From Octopus vulgaris (Eukaryota): DNA of 64,000 nucleotides. The stretch spans positions 75,020,001 to 75,084,000 of the forward strand of contig OX597816.1 of NCBI GenBank assembly GCA_951406725.2, read 5' to 3'. Below the pieces are notes generated by a model. The model saw nothing but the letters and a program-made list of their open reading frames with translations, ran no database searches and was not told the origin of the DNA. The translations under genes were made by a program, and so were the position numbers. Position 1 is the stretch's first letter. Each line of letters begins with the position of its first letter. Of this stretch, positions 19,975 to 33,858 are shown in pieces.

Positions 19975-20431
19975 TTCTCCGATTATGTACAATATATCAT
20001 ATACACAAATCGAATCAACAACATATACAAATCAAATATACAAATCGAATTGACAACATTGATTTCCCGTCATTTGAAAACAATTTGGCGCGGGTCAAAG
20101 AAATTGAATGTAAGAGTTCTCTCCCGTTATTAGTTTCGATTTTCGCCGTATGATGTCACTGTTAAATACACAGGTACTTACGCCAACAAAATAAACCGGA
20201 GCAAAAATAATCAATTTTACATTATTTACTTTAGTTTTTCAAATTAATAATCAAATATTTGAACTTTGAAATATAAATTCTTTGTTATACGATTAAAAAT
20301 CCTTCAATAAAGTCAGTAATTTTATTTTTACGACACGAGCGGATGAATACAAAACCTCAGCTTGGTTATGAGTTTTATAATGAGTTCCCATCTTCCTCTT
20401 TTCTAATTAGGACTACTCCAAGTCACCAGCT
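19975..20431. promoter_or_regulatory. Compact bidirectional promoter/5' UTR region shared by TUBGCP4 and RPL4
   Basis: Divergent start codons at 19974 (-) and 20432 (+). Locally richer in CpG than the surrounding introns. Confidence 0.75.
20391..20404 (+). promoter_or_regulatory. TCT initiator / 5'TOP pyrimidine tract of RPL4
   Basis: TCTTCCTCTTTTCT about 30-40 nt upstream of the RPL4 ATG, typical of metazoan ribosomal protein transcription starts. Confidence 0.75.
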
Positions 20432-20443
20432 ATGTCGAAGGCG
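20432..20443 (+). CDS. RPL4: 60S ribosomal protein L4 (uL4), coding exon 1 (MSKA)
   Basis: ATG just after the TOP tract, followed by a strong GCG|GTAAGT donor. Phase 0 joins exon 2. Confidence 0.85.
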
Positions 20444-22151
20444 GTAAGTGTTTCACGAGATATTATCCAATTTTAAAGCAACCAAATAATTTCAGACTTT
20501 GATTATTTCATTAAAGTTGACATCTATCGCTAATTGTTATTCATTCTGCGACTAATCAGATTAATATTTACTGTTTTTGATGTTAATTTGTCGGACTATT
20601 GCCCTCGCTCGCTGCAGCAATATGGCGATTCTCTCCAGAAAGACCCACGTGAAGCCAGAAATTGCTTTCAGTTTTTGTCTACATTTGATATTTTTTTTTT
20701 CATATTCCTTTAATATCAAACTGTGGGTTATAATTTAAATGTTATCTCGATTACTAATATCATTTTTTAGAAAGTAATTCCTTATGTAAATTACTTAGTC
20801 CGCCTTCTAAATAATATATTTTCTGTAACACGTGTCATTTAATTGGAATTATTTTAGTACTGTTCTTTAGTAATGCATGCTGAAGCGCTTTTTAGAAAGA
20901 ATTAGAATAATTGAAAGTGTTGTAGAATACAATTTAATTAGTATTTAAAATAAGTTTTTGACGGCTTTAGACCAGACTTTATTGAAGCCGGTCGATCGAC
21001 TTAGCATCGAGTCATTTTCTACCCTGTTGAAATAAAGCAAGGATAGATTTACCAGAATCGCCTAGATGTAGAAAATGCTTGAATTGTCATAAGCTGGAGG
21101 ACATTTGATCATAGTTTTGTTTGAATATGATGATGTGAGACTAATAAACTTATTCTGATTTCAAAATGCTTGGCTTTTAATGAAAACCTTATAACTTCCA
21201 CGTTTTGTGATATGGATATTAAGGGTTTAAGTTTGGTATTTTTAGACTGCTTATCGTAGTGGTAGCTTTAGTTTATGACGATTTGTCTTTGATAAGGCGT
21301 AAGTGATGGTTTATAAGCATGGAAGTTGTGCTGGATCGAGCAAGGGGTTACCTTTACATAAAACGGTTACGTAGAGTTCCTCGTTGGTTTTATATAATTG
21401 TGCTTCTCTGTCAGCTTTGAACCAGCATGCATATATGGAGGGCTATTATTGAGTCGGGGTTTCTTTTCCCCTCGGCAGGGTGTGATGTGAGGGAGATTTG
21501 CCTGCCATTTCTAGCAGTTATTGCTTCGTCGTTCACTGTTTAGATTGAAATGGGATGATCGGTGGGTTACACTCATATAATGCCGACAAATGATGATTTG
21601 CAACTACAAATTCCTATGGTTGCTTTTTATGAATCTAGGTCTTGCTTGGCACGCGATAAATGGATTGGGCGCTGAGTTAAATGGAACTACATGAAATTCA
21701 TCTCTTCCACCGGGTTCAAATTATTAAATCCAGCGAAAGCTTATAAACAATTATATATTTTGCATTTTAATACGTGACACAACTTCGGGAGTCGCTCTAA
21801 TATATATATATAAGAAAATAGAGAGGTAATTGATAAGTTATTTATTAATTAAAAAAAATTTACAAACGTCTCTTACAACTATATGATAGATCGTTAGCCA
21901 CTACACATTTTTTCTCCTTGTTTTTTTCTGTCCCTTTTTGTAGAAGAGCGTAGGCTCGAAACGTAAAAGCCTTTTTTTTTTTTTTATTCCTGAGCGTTAT
22001 ACTAATACATCTGTTTGTTTTATACATCACTTGTCTTCGTCTTTTGTTTTTTTTCGTAAACTCTCCCTATATATATATGTATATATACACGCGCACACAT
22101 TTATCATTACTGTTGAATTGGTTGTAAGCTATCTATTATTTATATTTTCAG

Positions 22152-22320
22152 GCAATCCGCCCGCTTGTGTCGGTCTACAATGATAAGGGTGAGTCTACGT
22201 CCTCCAACGTGAAAATGCCGGCTGTTTTCAGTGCCCCTATTCGGCCTGATATTGTCAGCTTCGTGCATGACCAGATGATGAAGAACTCTCGTCATCCTTA
22301 TGCTGTCTCTAAATATGCAG
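22152..22320 (+). CDS. RPL4: RPL4 exon 2 ([14 protein letters not shown]...[18 protein letters not shown]...HPYAVSKYA)
   Basis: Hallmark uL4 motifs. ttttcag| and |gtatg. Confidence 0.97.
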
Positions 22321-22409
22321 GTATGTTATTATTATTATTGCTTGTTTTACCTTCCAATCTGTTCTGTATTAAGGCTGATTTTCATATCTCAATCTGTTTT
22401 ATATTCCAG

Positions 22410-22655
22410 GTCATCAGACTTCTGCTGAGTCTTGGGGTACCGGTCGTGCTGTCGCTCGTATTCCTCGTGTACGCGGTGGTGGTACTCACAGATCGGGTCA
22501 GGGTGCATTCGGTAACATGTGCCGTGGTGGTCGTATGTTCGCTCCTACCAAAGTTTGGAGGCGCTGGCATAGAAAGATAAACGTCAATCAGAAGAGGTAC
22601 GCTATGTGTTCTGCTGTTGCTGCTAGCGGTATCACTTCTTTGGTTCAGTCGAAGG
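22410..22655 (+). CDS. RPL4: RPL4 exon 3 ([48 protein letters not shown]...)
   Basis: Near-invariant uL4 loop sequence with canonical splice sites. Confidence 0.98.
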
Positions 22656-22766
22656 GTAAGTGTTAAGTATCCTTTTCTATGTATTCCATGCGGGTAATAA
22701 TAAAAAAAGCACTAGGCTGTGTCTCATTTTTGTTTGCCCACTCAGTTGTATCTATCAACTTACCTT

Positions 22767-22797
<31 letters not shown>

Positions 22798-24173
22798 GTA
22801 ACACCCTAATGGGATCCTTAACTCCCAAATTTTAGTCATTTCTTTTATGATCCAAAACTAGGTCAAAAGTACTGAATTGATCTTTATGAAATTTGGAAAT
22901 TATATTCTATGCATAAGGGCCATAACCCCCATGACAATTCATATATTTTTGCTGTTGATGAAATTTTAACCCTAGATATTAGACACAAGTGAAGTAATAT
23001 TTTTAAAATTTCATCTTACAACTTAGAAAGACCCCTCCATGGGGACTTAACACCCACAATTTTGTCATTTTATCTAAGCAAAAACGATTACAGTTGTGGT
23101 CTTGGAAGCTGTAGGGTTACCTGAGCATAAAATTTGAGCATTATTTCTAATTCAATGGTCCAACAGTTTGCTTTGACATACACTTACATTGATTTCTGCA
23201 ATGTGGTGCATAAATTGTCAAGTAAATGAGGGGCATCTTTGCCTCCACTGATTCAGTTGCAAAGTGTTGAGTAATGTTATTTGATTGCCGACCTCCTTTC
23301 AGTCTTTTTATCATCACTCAGTTACAGAGTCCCCAGATGGTAACATTGATTTCAAGGCCTTCCCAGATGAGCGACTGGTTATTCAAAGACATTTATAGAT
23401 TATAAATTTATTCTGTCCAGTTACGTATCAGTATAGTGGTCATTTGCAAACTCCAGGGGTGACACTTTCATTTCTCCTTAGCCCTCACGTCGCACAGTTA
23501 ATATTTATTTCAGTTGGGTCACGCCCTTCCAATTGCTATAGATTCCTAATGCATCTTATGGCTCTACCTGTCACCTACATTGGGAGTGGTAACGACTAGG
23601 GTAGGGTAGCTGACTGCTTATTGTGATCATTCGTCTTTTGGTTTCCTGTAGCTTTGCTCTCTTTTACAAACCCAATGAACATATATTTCCAATTTCAAAG
23701 AAATTCAAACAATAGATATAAGACCGAAGTTAAAAAGATTCTCAACAATTCAACTTCTCTGGTTGACATTAAGATGTCCACTCCCAATAGGGGCCTTAAC
23801 TCTCACATTTTAGAGCTCCATGACCATCATTTTTTTCAGGAGCAAAATTTGTTTAACAGGTTCAATAAGACTGGTATTTTGGAATATGCGCATAAAAGTC
23901 AGTAGTGTGGGGTACATGTGACACGATTACAATTTTTTAGGGTGTGTAAAGAGGGAAATAACCTCATGCAATTTTGATGAAATTCGAAACATAGCTATTC
24001 CAGTTCATTACAGAAAGGTCTAATTCTTCAATTGTATGTAACACAGGCAATGCCAGGTATCTCTGCTAGTCTGCTATATAAGTATGGGATATGATAGGGC
24101 ATTGTTCTTACATGAATTTAGTGCTGTTGACATAGTATTATCTTAAATGGCTATTTTTGCATATTTGTTTTAG

Positions 24174-24298
24174 GTCATCAAATTCAAGAGGTTCCTGAAA
24201 TTCCATTGGTGATCACTGATAAAGTGCAGGAGTACAAGAAGACTAAGGATGCTGTAACTTTGTTGAGGCGTTTGAAGGCTTGGAATGACATTGAAAAG
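24174..24298 (+). CDS. RPL4: RPL4 exon 4 ([28 protein letters not shown]...AWNDIEK)
   Basis: Homology and consistent splice phase. Confidence 0.97.
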
Positions 24299-24439
24299 GT
24301 TTGTAAATGGTTTCATATTCGGTCTCATTGACAGCAATGATGCCTCTTTTGCTTTGTGTCGGTAGTTTGTTACTAATTTCAAGTATTGCTGAATAGTTGG
24401 ATTTCATTGTCCTTGATTTTATTCATCTTTTTCTTTCAG

Positions 24440-24569
24440 GTATATAAATCCAAGCGCTTCAGAGCTGGGAAGGGTAAAATGAGAAACCGTCGCAGGATTA
24501 TGCGTAAAGGACCAGTTCTTATCTATGAGAAGGACAATGGAATTGTGAGGGCTTTCCGTAACATTCCTG
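24440..24569 (+). CDS. RPL4: RPL4 exon 5 ([18 protein letters not shown]...RAFRNIP)
   Basis: [11 protein letters not shown] motif with canonical splice sites. Confidence 0.97.
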
Positions 24570-25388
24570 GTAAGTTGACATTTTACAAGAGTTGTAATCT
24601 GTGCCTGCTCTCTATCTCTCTGTAAATGTAGCATGTTGAGATGAACTTAATATATACAAATGGTTAGAAGGACTTACTGACCACTATCTCTTCCTAACTG
24701 GGCAACAAACTATAAAGATACTTAGCTAAGAAGATGCTACTGTATTTGGAGAGGCTCTTCCTATTGCAAAGAAATGGTTTTATATTCAGTCTGTGTTCTT
24801 AACAGTAATGATATTGATTCAATATCCTGATCTTAGCATTCTTCCTCACAAAACCATGTCGGTGGTGTCCTTTTGGTGATCACCAGAATTGTGAGAACCA
24901 TATGTCCTGGATGTAATTATCAGCAAAGAATTTAGCATAGGGGTAGGTGTCTATCCAGGTTCAGTTGTAGGGTTTTTTCATTATAGTTTTCTAGGCCCTG
25001 GTAAGTCTTTAACACTGACTTGGTCACTAATTGCCCTGAGTTTTCTCGGCAAATGTGGTGTAATGTTGCATGATACTGGTGCTGGAGTGTGTGGAGGAAA
25101 CTTTCTCTGCAGAAGTTGAAATTGTATGAACATGTGATTGTTTGATAAAGGCATGCCAATTGATATATGCGGGGATGGCCTGAGAGTTACAGAAAGCAAT
25201 GGTAAAGCCTATTCTCGTCAGGTTGTGCCTTGCAGTAAGTGTAAAGTCATTATGCAATTGTACTAGCATAAATAAGAAAGTTGATATTGTGGTGGGGAGG
25301 GGTTCGTTCTTTTGTAATACTTGACTGAGCAATATAATCTAGTTAGTACCACTAATTGCATGACCTATATTATGATTTGTCTTTCTAG

Positions 25389-25545
25389 GTATTACAACGC
25401 TTAATGTGAAGCATCTGAACCTCAGGAAAGTTGCCCCTGGTGGTCATGTGGGTCGGTTCTGTATATGGACAGAATCTGCCTTTAGGAGGCTTGATAGCAT
25501 CTACGGAACATGGACAACTCCGTCTAAGGAAAAGGTTGATTACAA
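25389..25545 (+). CDS. RPL4: RPL4 exon 6 ([32 protein letters not shown]...KVDY)
   Basis: [17 protein letters not shown] motif. Phase 1 to 2. Confidence 0.97.
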
Positions 25546-26298
25546 GTAAGTACTGTTAGCAGGCTTTCTCTTTTCAACTGTAGTTGTTGGTGAGGGCTGG
25601 GCAGCATTCATATTTTGGGGTTGTATATGGTTCATTCCATTGCAGGTTTTCAAGTAGGTCTCTAGTCTAATAAATTTCATACTGGTAATGGTGTCCTTCC
25701 TCTTGACCCAAAGTTGTTAAACTTTTTGATGAGCAGATGGTTGGCCATAAACGTACAAGACAGTTGTTTTTGTTTGTTTGTTTCTTTTATTGCCTGTTAC
25801 ATAATAAAAAAATGAAATAAGACTATCAATGTATGTTTCAATACTGAAATTTTATACATCATGTGTTTGCTGTTGTCAATTGGATGGATGAAATGAGGCC
25901 ACTATCTGTGGCCTGCCAACACTTTCTCTTGACTGAGTGATGAATAAAGTGTTATTTTGCTTGGCTAAGAATTCTAGTTAATTCATTTCAAAAACTTTAC
26001 GTAAGGGTGGTTAAATGTTGTATGACATGAGGATTATTTTCTCAATTTGTGCTGCAGATTGTGAAGTCACAGGAGCACATAAGCCTGCCGTATCTGGTCA
26101 AAATACTTTTTCACACTGACCACATCCTGCAATATCACTATAGGAAGAATGTTTCTTCCATTAGTGGTAGCTTTGATGTAGCTATTTAAGAGTACTCATT
26201 CATAGGTGGAAATTATTTCCTCTTAATCATTATTATTGATTGATCTGCACTTCATTGTTTGAAATTGTACTGACTAGATGTTGGTTTTAATTTTTCAG

Positions 26299-26382
26299 TC
26301 TCCCAATGCCAAAGATGTCCAATTCGGATTTGACAAGAATTTTGAAGAGCCAAGAAGTTCAGTCTGTGTTGAGATCACCACT
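26299..26382 (+). CDS. RPL4: RPL4 exon 7 (NLPMPKMSNSDLTRILKSQEVQSVLRSP)
   Basis: Homology. tttcag| and |gtaagt. Phase 2 to 2. Confidence 0.96.
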
Positions 26383-26558
26383 GTAAGTTTTTTTTTATAT
26401 GATTTGCTTTTTCGGAGTAAAGGGTCCTGTGTCTTTTGGTGTGATTCATCCTATTTTTAATATTTAATCCTGCTTTATTTAGCGTTTGAAGGAATTTGGT
26501 TGCTGTTGTAGTTGAAAGGTGTTTGTACCAGTTTCAATGTCCTTCGATATGTTTTGAT

Positions 26559-26633
26559 GCAAAGGAATGATGATTCTATATTGGTCCGTGTTGTTGAAAG
26601 CAATGATAGTGTTTGCAATATACTGACCTTTGC
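26559..26633 (+). ncRNA. SNORD18: Box C/D snoRNA U18 (SNORD18) copy 1 (D' variant TTGA)
   Basis: GCAAAGG stem, C box ATGATGA, guide TTGGTCCGTGTT (antisense to 28S AACACGGACCAA), D' TTGA, C' ATGATAG, D CTGA, CCTTTGC stem. RPL4 is the known vertebrate U18 host gene. Confidence 0.85.
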
Positions 26634-27169
26634 TTATCTAAAGATCTGTAACTTAATTTCCCTTAGAGTTCGATTAGTCAGGCTGGCTGTGCAGGTGGTT
26701 TTCAGTGTGTTATAATTTGCATGTATGTATTCTATTATAATTGCAAAACAGAATCACGGAGAAATCAGTGTAAGGTTAAATAATAAACTGCAATTGTAAA
26801 GAAATAGAGCAAGCACGATCTGCTGAATGTGATGAGATCAGAAATCAGTTGGGTGGGGTGGTTAAGTAATTAGATTTAATGAGGCTCCAGTGTGTGTGGA
26901 TCAAAGTGCAGTAGAGAAGGGGGGGGGCTGAGCATTGGATCTCACGAAGGAATGTGGTAAATAGTAAAATACTGTTAAAGAAGTCCTGCGCAGGCATGGG
27001 AAAACAGGTCTGGCCAAGCTTGGAGTCATTATTGTAATGAAGTTTCGCTCTTTGATGGGCTAACGTGTGATGAAGGAAAACCATTTGTCAGTTATGGGTT
27101 TGTGTAATTTCATTTTGGTATGGATAAGCTTGATAACTAAGTGGTTGGAGTCTTGAAGCAATTAATCTT

Positions 27170-27243
27170 GCAAAGGAATGATGATTCTATATTGGTCCGT
27201 GTTGCTGAAAGCAATGATATTGTTACAATATACTGACCTTTGC
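27170..27243 (+). ncRNA. SNORD18: snoRNA U18 copy 2
   Basis: Intact C, D' (CTGA) and D boxes, 12-nt 28S guide and 7-bp terminal stem. Confidence 0.9.
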
Positions 27244-27535
27244 TTATTTGAAGATTTGTATCTTAATTTCACTTAGAGCCCAACAAATACCTCAAATTCA
27301 CTGTTGTGTTTTAGCAAATTGTAGTGCTAGCAGCAACAAGGTATGGTGATTCTATATTCGTTGTGTACATAAATTACCTTCAGTCTCATGAGGTTTCATA
27401 GTAGTAGCTAATTCATTGTTACTTGGGTACTAATCAACGGCAGATTTGGGGTAGGGGAGGCCGAGATAATAATTGGAATTAGAACATGTAGGAATGGTCT
27501 AGGGAGCTGTTACCTTTGCATGAGATTGAGATGTA

Positions 27536-29609
27536 CCGTAAATCCTCAGGTATAGTCCACCCTTGAGTATAATACACGGGATTTTTAGGGAGCTGTGCCT
27601 CTGAAAGACCTGGACTTTGTGTATAATACGCACCCCATCTCTAACTTGAGTCGAGGTCTATATAATGTCCTTGGTCTGTAAAAATGTATGCGGTAACATC
27701 CTTTATTATTGCTTTCTTTATCTTTGGCATCTGTTTAATTTCATCTTTATTTCTTCTCCATAACCTGACATTGCTTTCGTCAACATTAAATTTCCTTCCG
27801 GAGGCCCTATTACCATGCTCTTCAGCATATGATATAACTTCAAGTATGTACAGGTTTAAGTAGCGCTTATATAGAAACCCTAGTAGAGACCTACAGTAGT
27901 TCAAACATTTAATACTGATATTTAATTGTCTATTGTTTGCCACGGTATTGATGCAAACTGCCGATACAAACTATTTAGCTTTAAACTATTAAGCACAATT
28001 AGTGCGTAATTAAGCCAGCAGCACCTAGTCAACCAAACACTTCCACGCATGCATAATACAACAATGGTGATGTTGTTAACTGTTATATGAGGATGTAAAT
28101 ATGTTTGCAAATTGTTACATGCTACTCTGTGTTCTGAATACTTTTATTTTAATAAATGTTGCTTACTGCAAGAGGACTTCATTTCTTTTAAGGCTTAGCT
28201 TAACCCTTTCGTTACTAAGCCGGCCGAAAAATTTTTTGGTTCAAAGTACCAACCCGGCCGTTAGAACCCGTTGTTATTTAAATGTAAATTTGAACCCAAA
28301 TCTCATTGGTACATTCGTTAAAGCATGTGATTTCACATTGTAAATGGTTAAGTTATACTATCCGACATTGCTTGAAGTGATATCTCAACTCAGTGAGTTT
28401 TGGGAGATTTTTTTCCACATGTTTTTCGGCATCGATTTTTCTTCAACTTTGAAAATGGATAGGAGTTTCATGTTATCAAGCATTGATTCCAAATTTAAAG
28501 CTTTGTCAACGGAAAATAGGGAGATATCGAGAAAAAGAATGAAATAGGTACTAAAGCACGTGGTGTACAAAATAATGAATATTTTTTTATCCGAAAATGA
28601 AAGCAGCGCCTTCCAAAGAAACAAAGCGGCCAAGGCGACAGCGAAGACGATTTTACATCGGAATGAAGTAAAAGAACTTTTAAAATGTTTTTATTGGCAA
28701 TTTTTCTGAGGAGATAAAGTTTATCTATAGCCTTTCTTAGGAAGTGAAACCATTAGACTTTTATTTTTTTCAGTATGCTAGTTTGAAGCGATTACTTCGG
28801 AAACAAACTTACGCAGATTGTAAACAAACCCAAAATCGGGGTTCAAAGTTTGGGAAATTTGTGAAGCAAATACTGGGTACTGCATGGATTTAGTTTTTAT
28901 ACAGGGAAAATAATGTTAGTCAGCATGGCCTAGGGAACGATGTGGTCTGGAATTTATCACTTCCATTCCATAACCAGGGCCGTATTATTTTTTGACCGAT
29001 TTCTTTAGTTCGGTCAAACTTACGGTGGATTCCAGTATTTCATTTTATTCCACCTTTATGGTACACCTGTTGTGCATTAAATTCAACTGATGATCTAGTG
29101 ATGTGCACAATTCCTCTTTATCGAAATTTTGTTGCATACCCATTTGACTATTAGCTGATGATTCATTTTCTATAATGATGTTTAAACAAAATTTTAATTT
29201 TTTACCTTTTGCTCAATTTAAAATTTTAATATTTTTACCTTTTGCTCAATTTACCTGGATTTACCTGTAATTAAAGTCACTTTGAGACGAAAGTTATGCA
29301 ATAGAATTGATTAAGAACCCTTCCTTTAATTATGTTCCAAATATCACATTAAAATGTTGATAAGTAAAAAAGTTAGTTATTTAATGAAACAAGCCTAAAT
29401 TCATGATTATTTTAGAATTTAATTGAAACTCATGAGGGGTGTATTTTGGTCAGAAATATAATAACAAAAGGGTTAAGGTATTTTCACGTCTGACATCACG
29501 AAATGTGTCAGACATTGCTTAGAAAATATTTTTCATTTTTAACCTCGTATGTTGTACGCACTAGGGATTTTGACCTTTAGGTGGGGGTGTTATACTCCGG
29601 GATTTACGG
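27536..29609 (-). mobile_element. Pogo/Tigger-like (Tc1/mariner superfamily) non-autonomous DNA transposon
   Basis: TA|CCGTAAATCC ... GGATTTACGG|TA termini. Minus-strand remnant 'EVISYAEEHGNRASGRKFNVDESNVRLWR' resembles a Brinker/pogo-type HTH. Confidence 0.8.
28204..29472 (+). mobile_element. piggyBac-like element (decayed transposase) nested in the pogo-like element
   Basis: TTAA|CCCTTT ... AAAGGG|TTAA termini. Frameshifted transposase-like fragments 'GFKVWEICEANTGYC' and 'HGLGNDVVWNL..PFHNQGR' at ~28800-29030. Confidence 0.85.
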
Positions 29610-29833
29610 TATGCACACATCAGACTATAAGGAAATAAAGCAAGCATGATCAGGCAGAAATGAGCTGGGAAGTATGGCCAAGCTTTGAGCCATTATTGTA
29701 ATGAAGTTTCGCTCTTTGATGGGCTAATGTGTGATGAGGGAAAACCATTTGTCAGTTATGGGTTTGTGCAATTTCATTTTGGTATGGATAAGCTTGATAA
29801 CTAAGTGGTTGGAGTCTTGAAGCAATTAATCTT

Positions 29834-29907
29834 GCAAAGGAATGATGATTCTATATTGGTCCGTGTTGCTGAAAGTAATGATATTGTTACAATATACTGA
29901 CCTTTGC
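29834..29907 (+). ncRNA. SNORD18: snoRNA U18 copy 3
   Basis: Same architecture as copy 2. Confidence 0.9.
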
Positions 29908-30541
29908 TTATTTGAAGATTTGTATTTTAATTTCACTTAGAGCCCTATAAATGCCTCAAATTCACTGTTGTGTTTTAGCAAATTGTAGTGCTAGCAGCAA
30001 CAAGGTATGGTGATTCTATATTCGTTGTTGTGTACATAAATTACCTTCAGTCTCATGAGGTTTCATAGTAGTAGCTAATACTTTGTTACTTGGGTACTGA
30101 TGTATTCTATTATAATTGCAAAACAGAATCACGGAGAAATCTGTGTAAGGTTAAATAATAAACTGCAATTGTAAAGAAATAGAGCAAGCACGATCTGCTG
30201 AATGTGATGAGACCAGAAATCAGTGGGGGGGTTAAGTAATTAGATTTAATGAGGCTCCAGTGTGTGTGTGGATCAAAGTGCAGTAGAGAAGGGGGGGGGC
30301 TGAGCATTGGATCTCACGAAGGAATGTGGTAAATAGTAAAATACTGTTAAAGAAGTCCTGCGCAGGCATGGGAAAACAGGTCTGGCCAAGCTTGGAGTCA
30401 TTATTGTAATGAAGTTTCGCTCTTTGATGGGCTAACGTGTGATGAAGGAAAACCATTTGTCAGTTATGGGTTTGTGTAATTTCATTTTGGTATGGATAAG
30501 CTTGATAACTAAGTGGTTGGAGTCTTGAAGCAATTAATCTT

Positions 30542-30615
30542 GCAAAGGAATGATGATTCTATATTGGTCCGTGTTGCTGAAAGTAATGATATTGTTACAA
30601 TATACTGACCTTTGC
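30542..30615 (+). ncRNA. SNORD18: snoRNA U18 copy 4
   Basis: Same architecture. A LINE insertion starts ~15 nt downstream. Confidence 0.9.
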
Positions 30616-30629
30616 TTATTTGAATATTT

Positions 30630-31071
30630 AGTTAGTTAGTTAGTTAATTTGGATCAAAAGCAAATAGCAAGGCCATGTAGGGGGACATGGAGTTAAGTAC
30701 AGGGTGGTGTTCATGTAAAGAGTTCAGGCCACTTGAGGTCAAGGGAGGCTTTGAACAAAGCGGTCGTCGGCATCTTCACCATCTCGTCTGGCAGCTTGTT
30801 CCACGGATCCGCAACCCGGACGGAGAAAGCTCCTCTCCTTCGACTGAGATGAAATCGTCACAGGTAGAGCTTTTCGGAATGACCCCGCAGCCGACGCTCT
30901 GGAGCAGGAGTGAAGAACAGCTCTTTCGAGAGGTTACACTTTCCGCTTATGATGTTGTGGGCAAGAATGGGATCACCACGGCGGCGGCGTTTTTCAAGAG
31001 AATAAAGGTCGAGCGTCCTCAGCCTTTCTTCGTAGGACAAATTTTTGAGACCATGAACCATGCGGTATCTT
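30630..31071 (-). mobile_element. 5'-truncated CR1-like LINE fragment with (TAAC)n tail
   Basis: ORF2 C-terminus 'LSYEERLRTLDLYSLEKRRRRGD...RGHS.KL...WNKLP'. 7-bp TSD AATATTT at 30623-30629 and 31072-31078. Confidence 0.88.
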
Positions 31072-31700
31072 AATATTTGTATCTTAATTTCACTTAGAGC
31101 CCTATAAATGCCTCAAATTCACTGTTGTGTTTTAGCAAATTGTAGTGCTAGCTGCAACAAGGTATGGTGATTCTATATTCGTTGTTGTGTACATATATTA
31201 CTTTCAGTCTCATGAGGTTTCATAGTAGTAGCTAATACTTTGTTACTTGGGTACTGATGTATTCTATTATAATTGCAAAACAGAATCACGGAGAAATCAG
31301 TGTAAGGTTAAATAATAAACTGCAATTGTAAAGAAATAGAGCAAGCACGATCTGCTGAATGTGATGAGACCAGAAATCAGTTGGGGGGGGGGGGTTAAGT
31401 AATTAGATTTAATGAGGCTCCAGTGTGTGTGGATCAAAGTGCAGTAGAGAGGGGGGGGCTGAGCATTGGATCTCACAAAGGAATGTGGTAAATAGTAAAA
31501 TACTGTTATAGAAGTCCTGCGCAGGCATGGGAAAACAGATCTGGCCAAGCTTGGAGTCATTATTGTAATGAAGTTTCGCTCTTTGATGGGCTAACGTGTG
31601 ATGAGGGAAAACCATTTGTCAGTTATGGGTTTGTGTAATTTCATTTTGGTATGGATAAGCTTGATAACTAAGTGGTTGGAGTCTTGAAGCAATTAATCTT

Positions 31701-31774
31701 GCAAAGGAATGATGATTCTATATTGGTCCGTGTTGCTGAAAGCAATGATATTGTTACAATATACTGACCTTTGC
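31701..31774 (+). ncRNA. SNORD18: snoRNA U18 copy 5
   Basis: Same architecture as copy 2. Confidence 0.9.
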
Positions 31775-33359
31775 TTGTTTAAGGATTTGTAACTTAACTT
31801 CCCTTAGAGCCCTAGTAAACTAATCATGTTGCTTGTGCAGTGAACTGATTTTGAGTGTGTATATTGGTTTGATATATTGCAAACTAGTAAATTGTGCTAG
31901 CTGCAACAATGCATTGGAATGTGAGACTGTTGTATATAATTGATGCAGAGGTGTGGTAATTCTATATTGACTGTTTTATATATTACCTTCAAAAGCTCAG
32001 AAGGCTTCGTGAAAATAGCGAAGTTTGTTACTTAGAAAATCTAATCAGCAGTGGGGTGGAGTCTGAACTGTCATAATTGGGATTGAAATGACCCATAGAG
32101 CTATTTACCTTTACTGACTTTGCTGGGATCCTCTGCATGAGAGTGAAATGTGTGAAATTTGCAAAGGAATAAAGCAAGTATAATCTGCTGAATGTTGGTC
32201 AATGCAGAAATAAGCTGGTGTGGATTAGTGGGTGCAATGACAAGGGAAATCTGGGCATTGGATCTCACAAAGAATTGCAGCAAGTTTGGGAAAACACTCC
32301 TTACTGGTCTAAATAACTGGTGTTTTTTTCCCCTGTTGGTTACTTAAAGTGGAGTTAGGATTAGAATGCAACAGGTGCTTATCATGGCTCTAAAGAAAAC
32401 TACAAAGGAAGTTTTAGAGTTTGGCACATTGGAGAGTGCTGTCAATGTCCTGACACTTGTGTTTTGTGCTTAGAACAGTGATCTTTTGTGGAGGTTGTTG
32501 ATATTTTTTTTATGATTGTCTACCTGGTCTAGAACAGTGGTTCCCAACCTGGGGGCCACAGAAATGCTGAGTGGGGGGGGGGGGTCCATGAGATAAATTT
32601 AAATTTTCATGTATATACATAAAGATAAGCCATGTTAAAAGTGGTCTGGGAAAACTTGATTAAATAAAAGGGTTGGGAACCACTTCTCTGGTGGTTCCCA
32701 ACACATAGTCCACTGTCAGTGATGCAGGGGAATTATCTTGATATTTGTCTCTGCTGTTGACAAATCATAAAATGTGATATTCTGACATTTACTTCAAGAT
32801 GGTCCAATTTCTAACCAGAATGATTTTGCTGTGTTCTGTATGTAAATAAATGATGGTGGTGGTGGTGTGTGTGTGTAAAACAAAAAAGTACATTAAGTGG
32901 TCAGATTAGTCAAAATTTGCTGTGTGTGTGCAGACTTCATTGGAGAAGGGCTTGCAGTTGTCATGCATGCAAATTTTCTTTTTCTACAGAAGTGTTTGTT
33001 GCTGCTGTCAGAATGGAATATGGTGCAAAGCATCTTCTTCCCTCTCCTGGATTGGTACATTCTGTTTAATGTGGACAGAGATATTGCTTTGCAATATCCT
33101 GAATTGGCTTCTTGCGCTGAGTGATATAATCACATTTGGTTATAGTCTGCTTTGGCTGAGGCAGGTTAGAGCTGGTAGTTTGTTTGGGGCAGGAACACTT
33201 TTCTAAATAGATTACCTGTGTGTTTTCAATTTCTTAAATAGTAAATTTAGAGGCTTCCGTTGTCTGGCAGGTTGCAGTAGTTTTGCTATAATCTTAGGTT
33301 TTCTCCTTGATGCTCTTTAAGTTCTGTCTTTACAGTTATTCATGATTTTCTTGTTACAG

Positions 33360-33519
33360 AGTGAGGTTAAATAGATACAAATTAAAGAAAAACCCATTGA
33401 AGAATTTCCGAGTAATGGTCAAGTTGAACCCATATGCCGCTGCCATGAAGAGGAGTGCTATTCTTTCTCAGAAGATCCAAAAGATTAACAAAGAAAGAAT
33501 GCTTGCTAAACGCAAAGTG
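33360..33519 (+). CDS. RPL4: RPL4 exon 8 ([31 protein letters not shown]...KRKV)
   Basis: KKNPLKN...KLNPYA motif of the uL4 C-terminal domain. Confidence 0.96.
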
Positions 33520-33618
33520 GTAAGAATACTGTACTTTGAATAATTATTATATTTGCTTTTGGATAAATGTTCCTGACTTTACACCATGTGATGTTACTAT
33601 TATTTTATTTCATTTCAG

Positions 33619-33858
33619 GTGGAAGGTACTGTTGGTTTCAGGAAAAGGCCTGTGAAGTTAAGAGCCACCAAGAAGGATGGTAAGATTATCAGGAAGGCGA
33701 AAACAGTAAAACAGATTCGCAAGCGTTCTACTAAACCTTCGAAAAAAACTGATAGCAAGGCTGCAAAAAAGACTGACAGTAAGCCCGTGAAAAAGGCTGC
33801 AACTGCACCTGTGAAAAAGGCTGAAACCAAGCCTGCAAAATCAGTTGCAGCTAAGTAA
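33619..33858 (+). CDS. RPL4: RPL4 exon 9, Lys/Ala/Pro-rich C-terminal tail ending in TAA
   Basis: tttcag| acceptor in phase, basic tail typical of metazoan uL4, AATAAA 22 nt after the stop. Confidence 0.9.
   Translation: MEGTVGFRKRPVKLRATKKDGKIIRKAKTVKQIRKRSTKPSKKTDSKAAKKTDSKPVKKAATAPVKKAETKPAKSVAAK

Follow-up and report, generated by a model that had tools for sequence, protein, structure and literature searches.

The stretch of DNA analysed here (the window) is 64,000 nucleotides (nt) long and comes from Octopus vulgaris (contig OX597816.1, positions 75,020,001 to 75,084,000); coordinates without a prefix are positions within it. It contains the gene for the ribosomal protein RPL4 (uL4), and the seventh intron of this gene holds five intact genes for U18 (SNORD18), a small nucleolar RNA (snoRNA) of the box C/D type, which together form an intronic cluster. 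We regard the identity and the arrangement of the five copies, taken jointly, as nearly certain. The host gene and the copies are as follows.

20432-33858, + strand: RPL4 (uL4) host gene, nine coding exons, open frame of 440 amino acids, GT-AG introns
20432-20443, 22152-22320, 22410-22655, 24174-24298, 24440-24569, + strand: RPL4 coding exons 1-5
25389-25545, 26299-26382, 33360-33519, 33619-33858, + strand: RPL4 coding exons 6-9, with poly(A) after about 33906
26383-33359, + strand: RPL4 intron 7, host of the array, 6,977 nt
26559-26633, + strand: copy 1 of U18, belonging to an older lineage, with 176 nt between it and the 5' splice site (Rfam 40.5 bits, E 1.2e-4)
27170-27243, + strand: U18 copy 2, Rfam 47.3 bits, same sequence as copy 5
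27178-27184, 27192-27203, 27205-27208, 27233-27236, + strand: C box, guide, D' box and D box of copy 2
29834-29907, + strand: U18 copy 3, Rfam 47.5 bits, same sequence as copy 4
30542-30615, + strand: U18 copy 4, Rfam 47.5 bits, with a LINE-like (long interspersed nuclear element) insertion 14 nt downstream
31701-31774, + strand: U18 copy 5, Rfam 47.3 bits, upstream flank of the recent type and downstream flank of the old type

U18 copies and their host intron

All five copies lie where an earlier note on this DNA had placed them, and each has a consensus C box, a consensus D box, a 7-bp terminal stem (-11.4 to -12.7 kcal/mol) and a perfect 12-nt guide. The note had also given every copy a D' box; four of the five carry the consensus, and in copy 1 its first base is changed. 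It had suggested a search with the Rfam SNORD18 model (RF00093, gathering threshold 41 bits), and this search places copies 2-5 above the threshold (47.3-47.5 bits) and copy 1 only 0.5 bit below it. Copy 1 is 95-96% identical to the others, from which it differs by 3-4 substitutions and one indel. Across the 2.8-Gb octopus genome (G000), a DNA search with BLAST returned five matches, which are the five intron-7 copies, and the Rfam model returned four, which are copies 2-5; both searches score best candidates only. Copies 2 and 5 share one sequence and copies 3 and 4 another, so small-RNA reads can separate three classes only, and not the five individual copies that the proposed diagnostic substitutions were meant to tell apart. 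An Rfam search of the RPL4 introns to E=5 found no other snoRNA and no SNORD16 match in the gene. A scan of the same introns for C and D boxes gave a sole candidate, at 21127-21158 in intron 1, which was rejected as too short (boxes 32 nt apart, 6-bp stem); its best match to 28S is 6 nt.

The joined coding sequence of the host gene agrees at 440 of 440 residues with P0001, a protein named Octopus vulgaris RPL4, and has the Pfam domains PF00573 (Ribosomal_L4) and PF14374 (Ribos_L4_asso_C), the latter split into consecutive parts over exons 7 and 8. Four of the 24 listed sequencing runs were compared, namely X4 (DNA, with another organism label), X9, X14 and X24; X9 and X14, which come from two studies, were taken as RNA on account of spliced joints at high depth and of a loose poly(A) end in X14. 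All 8 RPL4 joints were recovered across the X9 and X14 contigs. Intron 7 is skipped as one joint (26382-33360), at a depth of 13,193 in X9 and of 2,953 and 2,850 in X14, and the five copies therefore share one intron in the main transcript, at 1,585-6,726 nt from its 3' splice site. Among the 15 joints listed, none leads to a site between U18 copies, save for deletions within transposon copies. Exon structure and joint together make the array an intronic cluster as defined in the supplement of PMC11028025, i.e. at least two snoRNA genes in one host intron. The departure from one snoRNA per intron that the earlier note described is thus borne out by five copies behind a single joint.

Some further features of the host gene were observed. 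P0001 has 15 additional N-terminal residues, apparently from an upstream exon near 20150, and if this exon is real all intron numbers rise by one. A pyrimidine tract lies immediately 5' of the start codon (20388-20432), with an X9 contig extending to about 20397, and it presumably resembles a 5' terminal oligopyrimidine (5'TOP) motif. The DNA run X4 contains spliced RPL4 joints for introns 1-6 (20442-26299) at a depth of 17-30, about half the single-copy depth, which may reflect a processed retrocopy or RNA carry-over; exon 5 of RPL4 has one match only in G000.

A search of G000 with the target pattern of the guide gave three exact sites, one of which lies within an Rfam large-subunit ribosomal RNA (rRNA) match of 944 bits:

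G000:C20:11441387-11444813: the 28S copy used, possibly diverged

Over the 3,056 nt of this 28S, no copy has a match longer than its 12-nt guide. Under the D'+5 rule the predicted target, with which the fifth base pairs, is the A at L012:1506, the same 28S adenosine that the earlier note had named as the target. All five copies are predicted, from this pairing, to guide one 28S rRNA 2'-O-methylation. Two short 28S-like fragments occur elsewhere (G000 C10:117014626 and C13:9762881), and rDNA (the DNA encoding rRNA) may be under-assembled in G000.

Duplication, decay and other arrays

The array very probably arose by tandem duplication, and repeated unequal crossing-over is the likely means. The units, the decayed relics and the insertions on which this history rests are listed here.

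29908-30615, + strand: full recent unit of 708 nt, made up of downstream flank D, segments B and C, and snoRNA
30616-31774, + strand: second, interrupted unit
26725-27434 and 29672-29907, + strand: partial units
24764-24837, + strand: decayed U18 relic in intron 5, nhmmer E 1.6e-8, 80-82% identity, with the 5' splice site about 195 nt away
32721-32794, + strand: decayed U18 relic in distal intron 7, closest to copy 1
33022-33110, + strand: possible further relic (weak), more decayed, nhmmer E 0.046
27534-29611, no strand assigned: insertion between copies 2 and 3 that resembles a DNA transposon; it has TA ends, and its terminal inverted repeats are 21 nt long
28200-29476, no strand assigned: element nested in it, with inverted repeats and TTAA ends
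30630-31071, - strand: LINE-like 3' piece, 14 nt after copy 4; its tail is a 4-nt repeat, and 7 nt of the target site are duplicated

The recent layer consists of units of 708-713 nt that are 92-98% identical in self-BLAST, with flank and segment pairs 94.8-100% alike, and copies 2 and 4 share 300 identical nt together with their upstream flank. Beneath it lies an older layer, in which the flank after copy 5 is 78-80% identical to the flanks D of copies 2-4, and the 35 nt 3' of copy 1 are 83-86% like those of the other copies. At copy 5 the recent flank gives way to the old one exactly at the 3' end of the snoRNA, which would place a crossing-over inside the conserved snoRNA itself. The uniform cassette of about 0.6-0.7 kb described earlier does not hold: the start-to-start spacings are 611, 2664, 708 and 1159 nt, two spacers contain transposons, and copy 1 has an upstream flank of its own.

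Copies have also been lost. The relic in intron 5 retains its D box, while its C box, guide, D' box and stem are broken (stem -4.6 kcal/mol); its longest 28S match is 8 nt and lies elsewhere in 28S. The relic at 32721-32794 aligns to copy 1 with a local score of 76, and 300 shuffled versions of the 1,550-nt region scored no higher than 60. For 33022-33110 the scores are 66 against a maximum of 62 (copy 1) and 59 against 58 (copy 2), in 300 shuffles each, and with the intron-5 relic as query the match is not significant (11/300 shuffles). The flanks of the relics gave no convincing alignment with those of the intact copies. A small element with 19-nt inverted ends (32531-32689) lies just 5' of the distal relic. 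Nested duplication layers, relics in introns 5 and 7 and insertions lead us to conclude that U18 copy number turns over by birth-and-death, and not by one clean amplification. The relics in the two introns and the transposons in two spacers are new here.

Both insertions belong to sequences that are abundant in run X4, with a depth of 50,000-159,000 over the 2.1-kb insertion at 27534-29611, against about 50 in single-copy bins, and of 0.5-1.1 million over the LINE-like piece. From their end motifs we take the outer element to be Tc1/mariner-like and the nested one piggyBac-like, and the LINE-like reading frame to be CR1/L2-like.

That haplotypes or reads were wrongly stacked in the assembly, with a true copy number of one or two, is so improbable that we give it hardly any weight. 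The 300 nt shared by copies 2 and 4 are what such an artefact would look like, and X24, the sole run of raw reads, is uninformative (of 12.9 million reads, 10 could be placed, AT-rich ones that fit in part). The spacers, however, hold different insertions with intact end signatures, and the breaks in contigs from other samples coincide with the points at which the flanks diverge, namely 31747 (X9, X14 and X4), 26584 (X4), and 27431 and 31229 (X9). The breaks in X4 at 26584 and 31747 require at least two copies. In X9, contigs 20 and 21 and one starting at 31747 imply a copy followed by D and segment E, by D and B, and by the old flank, respectively. Contig 3 of X14 spans the left transposon junction, and the X14 stretch common to copies 2 and 4 has a depth of 9.5, against 3.4-4.9 for single-copy intron pieces, contig depth being a rough guide only. 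In X4 the cassette bins have depths of 92, 53 and 34, against 43-58 for single-copy intron bins, and these do not translate into copy number, since it is unclear how contigs with two possible places were treated. Overall the contigs from other samples support at least three copies in X9 and at least two in X4, and they do not fix the exact number of five.

The amplification is not specific to U18. Seven C/D families, a non-random sample chosen by hand, were searched in G000; five were found, three of them as tandem arrays (SNORD18 with five members, SNORD14 with six and SNORD31 with nine).

G000:C2:106457186-106461623 (L026:2187-6624): SNORD14 (U14) array, six near-identical copies in 4.4 kb
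G000:C6:131056400-131067086 (L038, L039): SNORD31 array, nine matches in 10.7 kb, 8 of them over the gathering score

The SNORD14 copies score 48.9-50 bits, under the gathering score of 64, and seven SNORD31 copies are identical over 67 nt and mostly 1.0-1.5 kb apart. No plausible host exon emerged for either array among open reading frames above the length cut-offs, which leave short exons possible, and the SNORD14 host looks non-coding. Variable sites within SNORD14 are fewer than in its downstream flank (2/93 against 7/56, P=0.027); the corresponding count for the upstream flank (22/54 against 0/93) is set aside, as indels may have raised it. Low variation within the SNORD14 and SNORD31 copies could also be explained by gene conversion. 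Among the remaining families, SNORD24 has one match and SNORD15 three dispersed matches under the gathering score (C21:35140543 and C21:35154394, 14 kb apart, and C19:20191539), and genome searches of G000 for SNORD36 and snoR38 gave no match, by which their absence is not demonstrated. Taken together, these searches suggest that C/D snoRNAs in octopus tend toward tandem arrays throughout the genome.

Several side observations accompany these arrays. Beside the six SNORD14 copies there is one that has lost its D box, at about L026:5002; a truncated relic lies at about L026:7086, and upstream of the array there are other C/D-like candidates. The SNORD14 and SNORD31 arrays each contain relatives (72-82% identical) of the TTAA-ended element at 28200-29476, and relatives of the LINE-like piece occur in the SNORD31 array; both repeats are very high-copy, and chance coincidence is possible. 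Mixed C/D snoRNAs lie within 2 kb at L028:3335-5327 (G000:C2 near 174.745 Mb), where SNORD79-, Me28S-Cm2645-, SNORD100- and SNORD81-like members accompany SNORD24, the only one to pass its cut-off; presumably this cluster resembles a GAS5-type host.

Proposed release from the spliced intron

We give an even chance to the proposal that the copies are freed singly by internal cuts after the intron has been spliced out whole. Their terminal stems would help copies that lie far from the branch point to take up core proteins. After debranching of the lariat, exonucleases would digest it as far as the outermost copies that are loaded, and an intermediate of up to 5.2 kb with snoRNAs at its ends would be left. 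The spacers would then be cut endonucleolytically, for which EndoU and general decay nucleases are candidates, and trimming from the new ends would yield mature U18 of about 70 nt. This route was chosen because no U18 locus other than the present one was found in G000, which makes it the most likely source of mature U18, and because several copy lineages are intact together. Endonucleolytic release has reportedly been tied to U18 itself. Terminal stems are described as offsetting distance from the branch point (PMC10234308), and splicing-independent endonucleolytic release of intronic snoRNAs is described for Rnt1 in yeast and XendoU in Xenopus (PMC10557570). A gene of the corresponding family is found in the octopus genome, and it lends weak backing to endonucleolytic release:

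G000:C28:25395037-25399586 (L013-L015): gene of the EndoU/XendoU family, with three exon matches free of stop codons that together span positions 57-262 of a 262-position model

The lower variation of the SNORD14 copies relative to their downstream flank also counts for release of individual copies from an array.

A number of points weigh against this reading. The maturation of the U18 copies, the intermediate and the cut sites are predictions from sequence. The 28S copy used for the guide may be diverged and not functional rDNA, and an 18S match sought in the 8 kb upstream of it was not found. Variable sites among copies 2-5 number 1/74 in the snoRNA and 24/629 in the flank (P=0.50), the selection test of copy 1 against copy 5 is not significant either (P=0.11), and the SNORD31 copies give 0/67 against 8/130 (P=0.053). 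Among 25 of the 31 inverted pairs, none was a long local hairpin of the RNase III type in the spacers between the copies. EndoU occurs widely among animals. The enzyme is described as a nonspecific calcium-dependent nuclease (PMC4195833), and its human homologue as not having been shown to cut intronic snoRNAs (PMC10557570). In mammals, an intron with two snoRNAs reportedly gives a stable snoRNA-ended long non-coding RNA (sno-lncRNA) (PMC4234469, PMC5054931).

The U18 tests not being significant, selection for more U18 is not shown, and the earlier note's reading of the array as a dosage expansion is weak. The supplement of PMC11028025, in which 18 of 18 SNORD18 rows and 22 of 32 RPL4 rows were covered, has 4 SNORD18 in the RPL4 of zebrafish and platypus and 3 in that of human, chicken and macaque, all one per intron. 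Vertebrate RPL4 thus already carries 3-4 copies, and five is a small step up. There is probably little selection on the exact U18 copy number.

The same tests fit an account in which exonucleases act alone, which we consider unlikely, if deserving of serious attention. Few copies would load, trimming would run through the unloaded ones, and each intron would give at most one U18; the extra copies would be near-neutral, or would raise the chance that exactly one loads, since n × p × (1 - p)^(n - 1) peaks at 0.41 for n=5 and p=0.2, against 0.2 for one copy. This account needs no new enzyme, as the rule for most intronic snoRNAs of animals is one per intron, with release by debranching and then trimming (PMC11028025). 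It is also favoured by the distance of all copies from the 3' splice site (at least 1,585 nt), by the missing selection signal on the recent copies and by the decay of several others. Many expressed human intronic snoRNAs with strong stems, however, lie far from the branch point (PMC10234308), and loading may therefore be efficient; the internal SNORD14 copies, moreover, look conserved relative to their flanks, in an array that may or may not be intronic. The statement that release needs extra splicing or endonucleolytic cutting consequently survives as one option, in that exonucleases alone would mature U18 whenever one copy is loaded. Nor does the loading of two copies make extra cutting a necessity, the published outcome in mammals being a sno-lncRNA.

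Such an RNA could also be the main product here, with the outer copies capping a persistent non-polyadenylated RNA of 5.2 kb or shorter, which might have its own role, and with mature U18 as a minor product. We think this improbable. Its prerequisite of at least two snoRNAs within a single spliced intron is present, the outcome has been reported in mammals for a ribosomal-protein gene too (Rpl13a; PMC4234469), and at least two copies seem to stay alike where their flanks have diverged by about 20%. Intron 7 is also better covered than introns 5 and 6 (12.9-14.2 against 1.5-1.75 in X9, and 3.2-4.5 against 0 in X14). This signal, however, lies 3' of copy 5 and in X9 (contig 22) runs into exon 8, which fits unspliced pre-mRNA; contig depth is a poor measure of level, contigs cannot show ends, and the library types of X9 and X14 are unrecorded. 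About half of the span is transposon sequence, and no other U18 source was found in G000, both of which speak against a persistent RNA at the expense of mature U18.

Hidden splicing offers a further route, to which we attach little probability. A cryptic exon of 26 nt would sometimes be included, so that copies land in sub-introns near a branch point, and the resulting frame-shifted mRNA would be lost to nonsense-mediated decay.

27315-27340, + strand: putative cryptic exon of 26 nt, whose acceptor follows copy 2 at a distance of 71 nt; repeats at 29979-30004 and 31136-31161

The acceptor lies 71 nt after both copy 2 and copy 3, near the 70-nt optimum (PMC5054931), and the donor score (6.0) is within the range of the real donors (4.6-10.0). 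The acceptor score (4.8), on the other hand, is under all 8 real ones (5.3-12.0), on a matrix from 8 introns only. No such site follows copy 1 or copy 5, and the LINE-like piece parts it from copy 4; none of the 15 joints listed uses it, and X9 contig 20 runs through it unspliced. Of six AG|GT-like sites at which recursive splicing might occur, four lie within insertions, and none is repeated with the cassette.

How several snoRNAs mature from one animal intron is poorly resolved, with sno-lncRNAs known in mammals and clusters annotated in flies and worms. The RPL4 locus provides a clean test case for release by internal cuts and for its rivals, with a highly expressed host, a constitutive intron, the only U18 source found, three separable classes of copy and one rRNA read-out. 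Every component is already known, and the surprise is moderate. A bolder idea, quite unlikely in our judgement, is that octopus has amplified many C/D snoRNAs as tandem arrays throughout its genome and processes those in multi-copy introns by a regular endonucleolytic pathway undescribed in animals, or as stable multi-kb RNAs capped by snoRNAs. If the array habit does go with snoRNA-capped RNAs, the product of RPL4 intron 7 would be a constitutively spliced sno-lncRNA with U18 ends, the first from an invertebrate.

Comparison with known systems

Judged by titles and the beginnings of abstracts, no reports of snoRNA arrays in cephalopods or other molluscs were found, in a search outside which lay most subscription journals and the supplements of genome papers, where these loci may be annotated; the available part of PMC11014333 has no passage on U18, RpL4 or intronic clusters. 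The earlier statement that polycistronic clusters are better known from plants, yeasts and some insects needs qualifying: intronic clusters, C/D ones included, are annotated in Caenorhabditis elegans, Drosophila and zebrafish. Examples in the supplement of PMC11028025 are the fly genes sta and RpS16 and three C/D snoRNAs in C. elegans top-2, and in all kingdoms together it has at least 422 cluster rows against at least 3,676 mono-intronic rows. The fly, worm and zebrafish clusters are like the octopus array in having at least a pair of snoRNAs within a single intron, in ribosomal-protein hosts too. Drosophila clusters are mainly H/ACA (PMC3089462), whereas the octopus array consists of near-identical C/D copies, 0.6-2.7 kb apart, with transposons between them, and lies in a mollusc.

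The sno-lncRNAs, i.e. the SNORD116 pairs of the Prader-Willi region and SNORD33/34 of mouse Rpl13a, share with the octopus array the same precondition and the same predicted trimming intermediate. They are demonstrated RNAs that often need exon skipping for two snoRNAs to come together, whereas the octopus arrangement is constitutive and known from sequence. XendoU in Xenopus and Rnt1 in yeast provide a precedent for cutting independent of splicing, described for single intronic snoRNAs or yeast polycistrons.

Another close parallel is the SNORD18 (U18A/B/C) of vertebrate RPL4, which belongs to the same Rfam family and has the same host gene and a D' guide to a 28S adenosine; in chicken, U18 targets 28S-A1263 and lies in RPL4 introns 2, 5 and 6 (PMC2653536). 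The deep RPL4-U18 pairing proposed earlier stands insofar as it is shared with vertebrates (RPL4 hosts U18 in chicken, human, zebrafish, macaque and platypus), and the present locus extends it to a mollusc. Vertebrate and octopus RPL4 alike have gained several U18 copies per gene by cis-duplication. The vertebrate copies are spread one per intron (14 of 14 RPL4 SNORD18 rows, and human 18A/B/C; PMC11028025), whereas in octopus five share intron 7 and, unlike in vertebrates, the copy in another intron (intron 5) has decayed.

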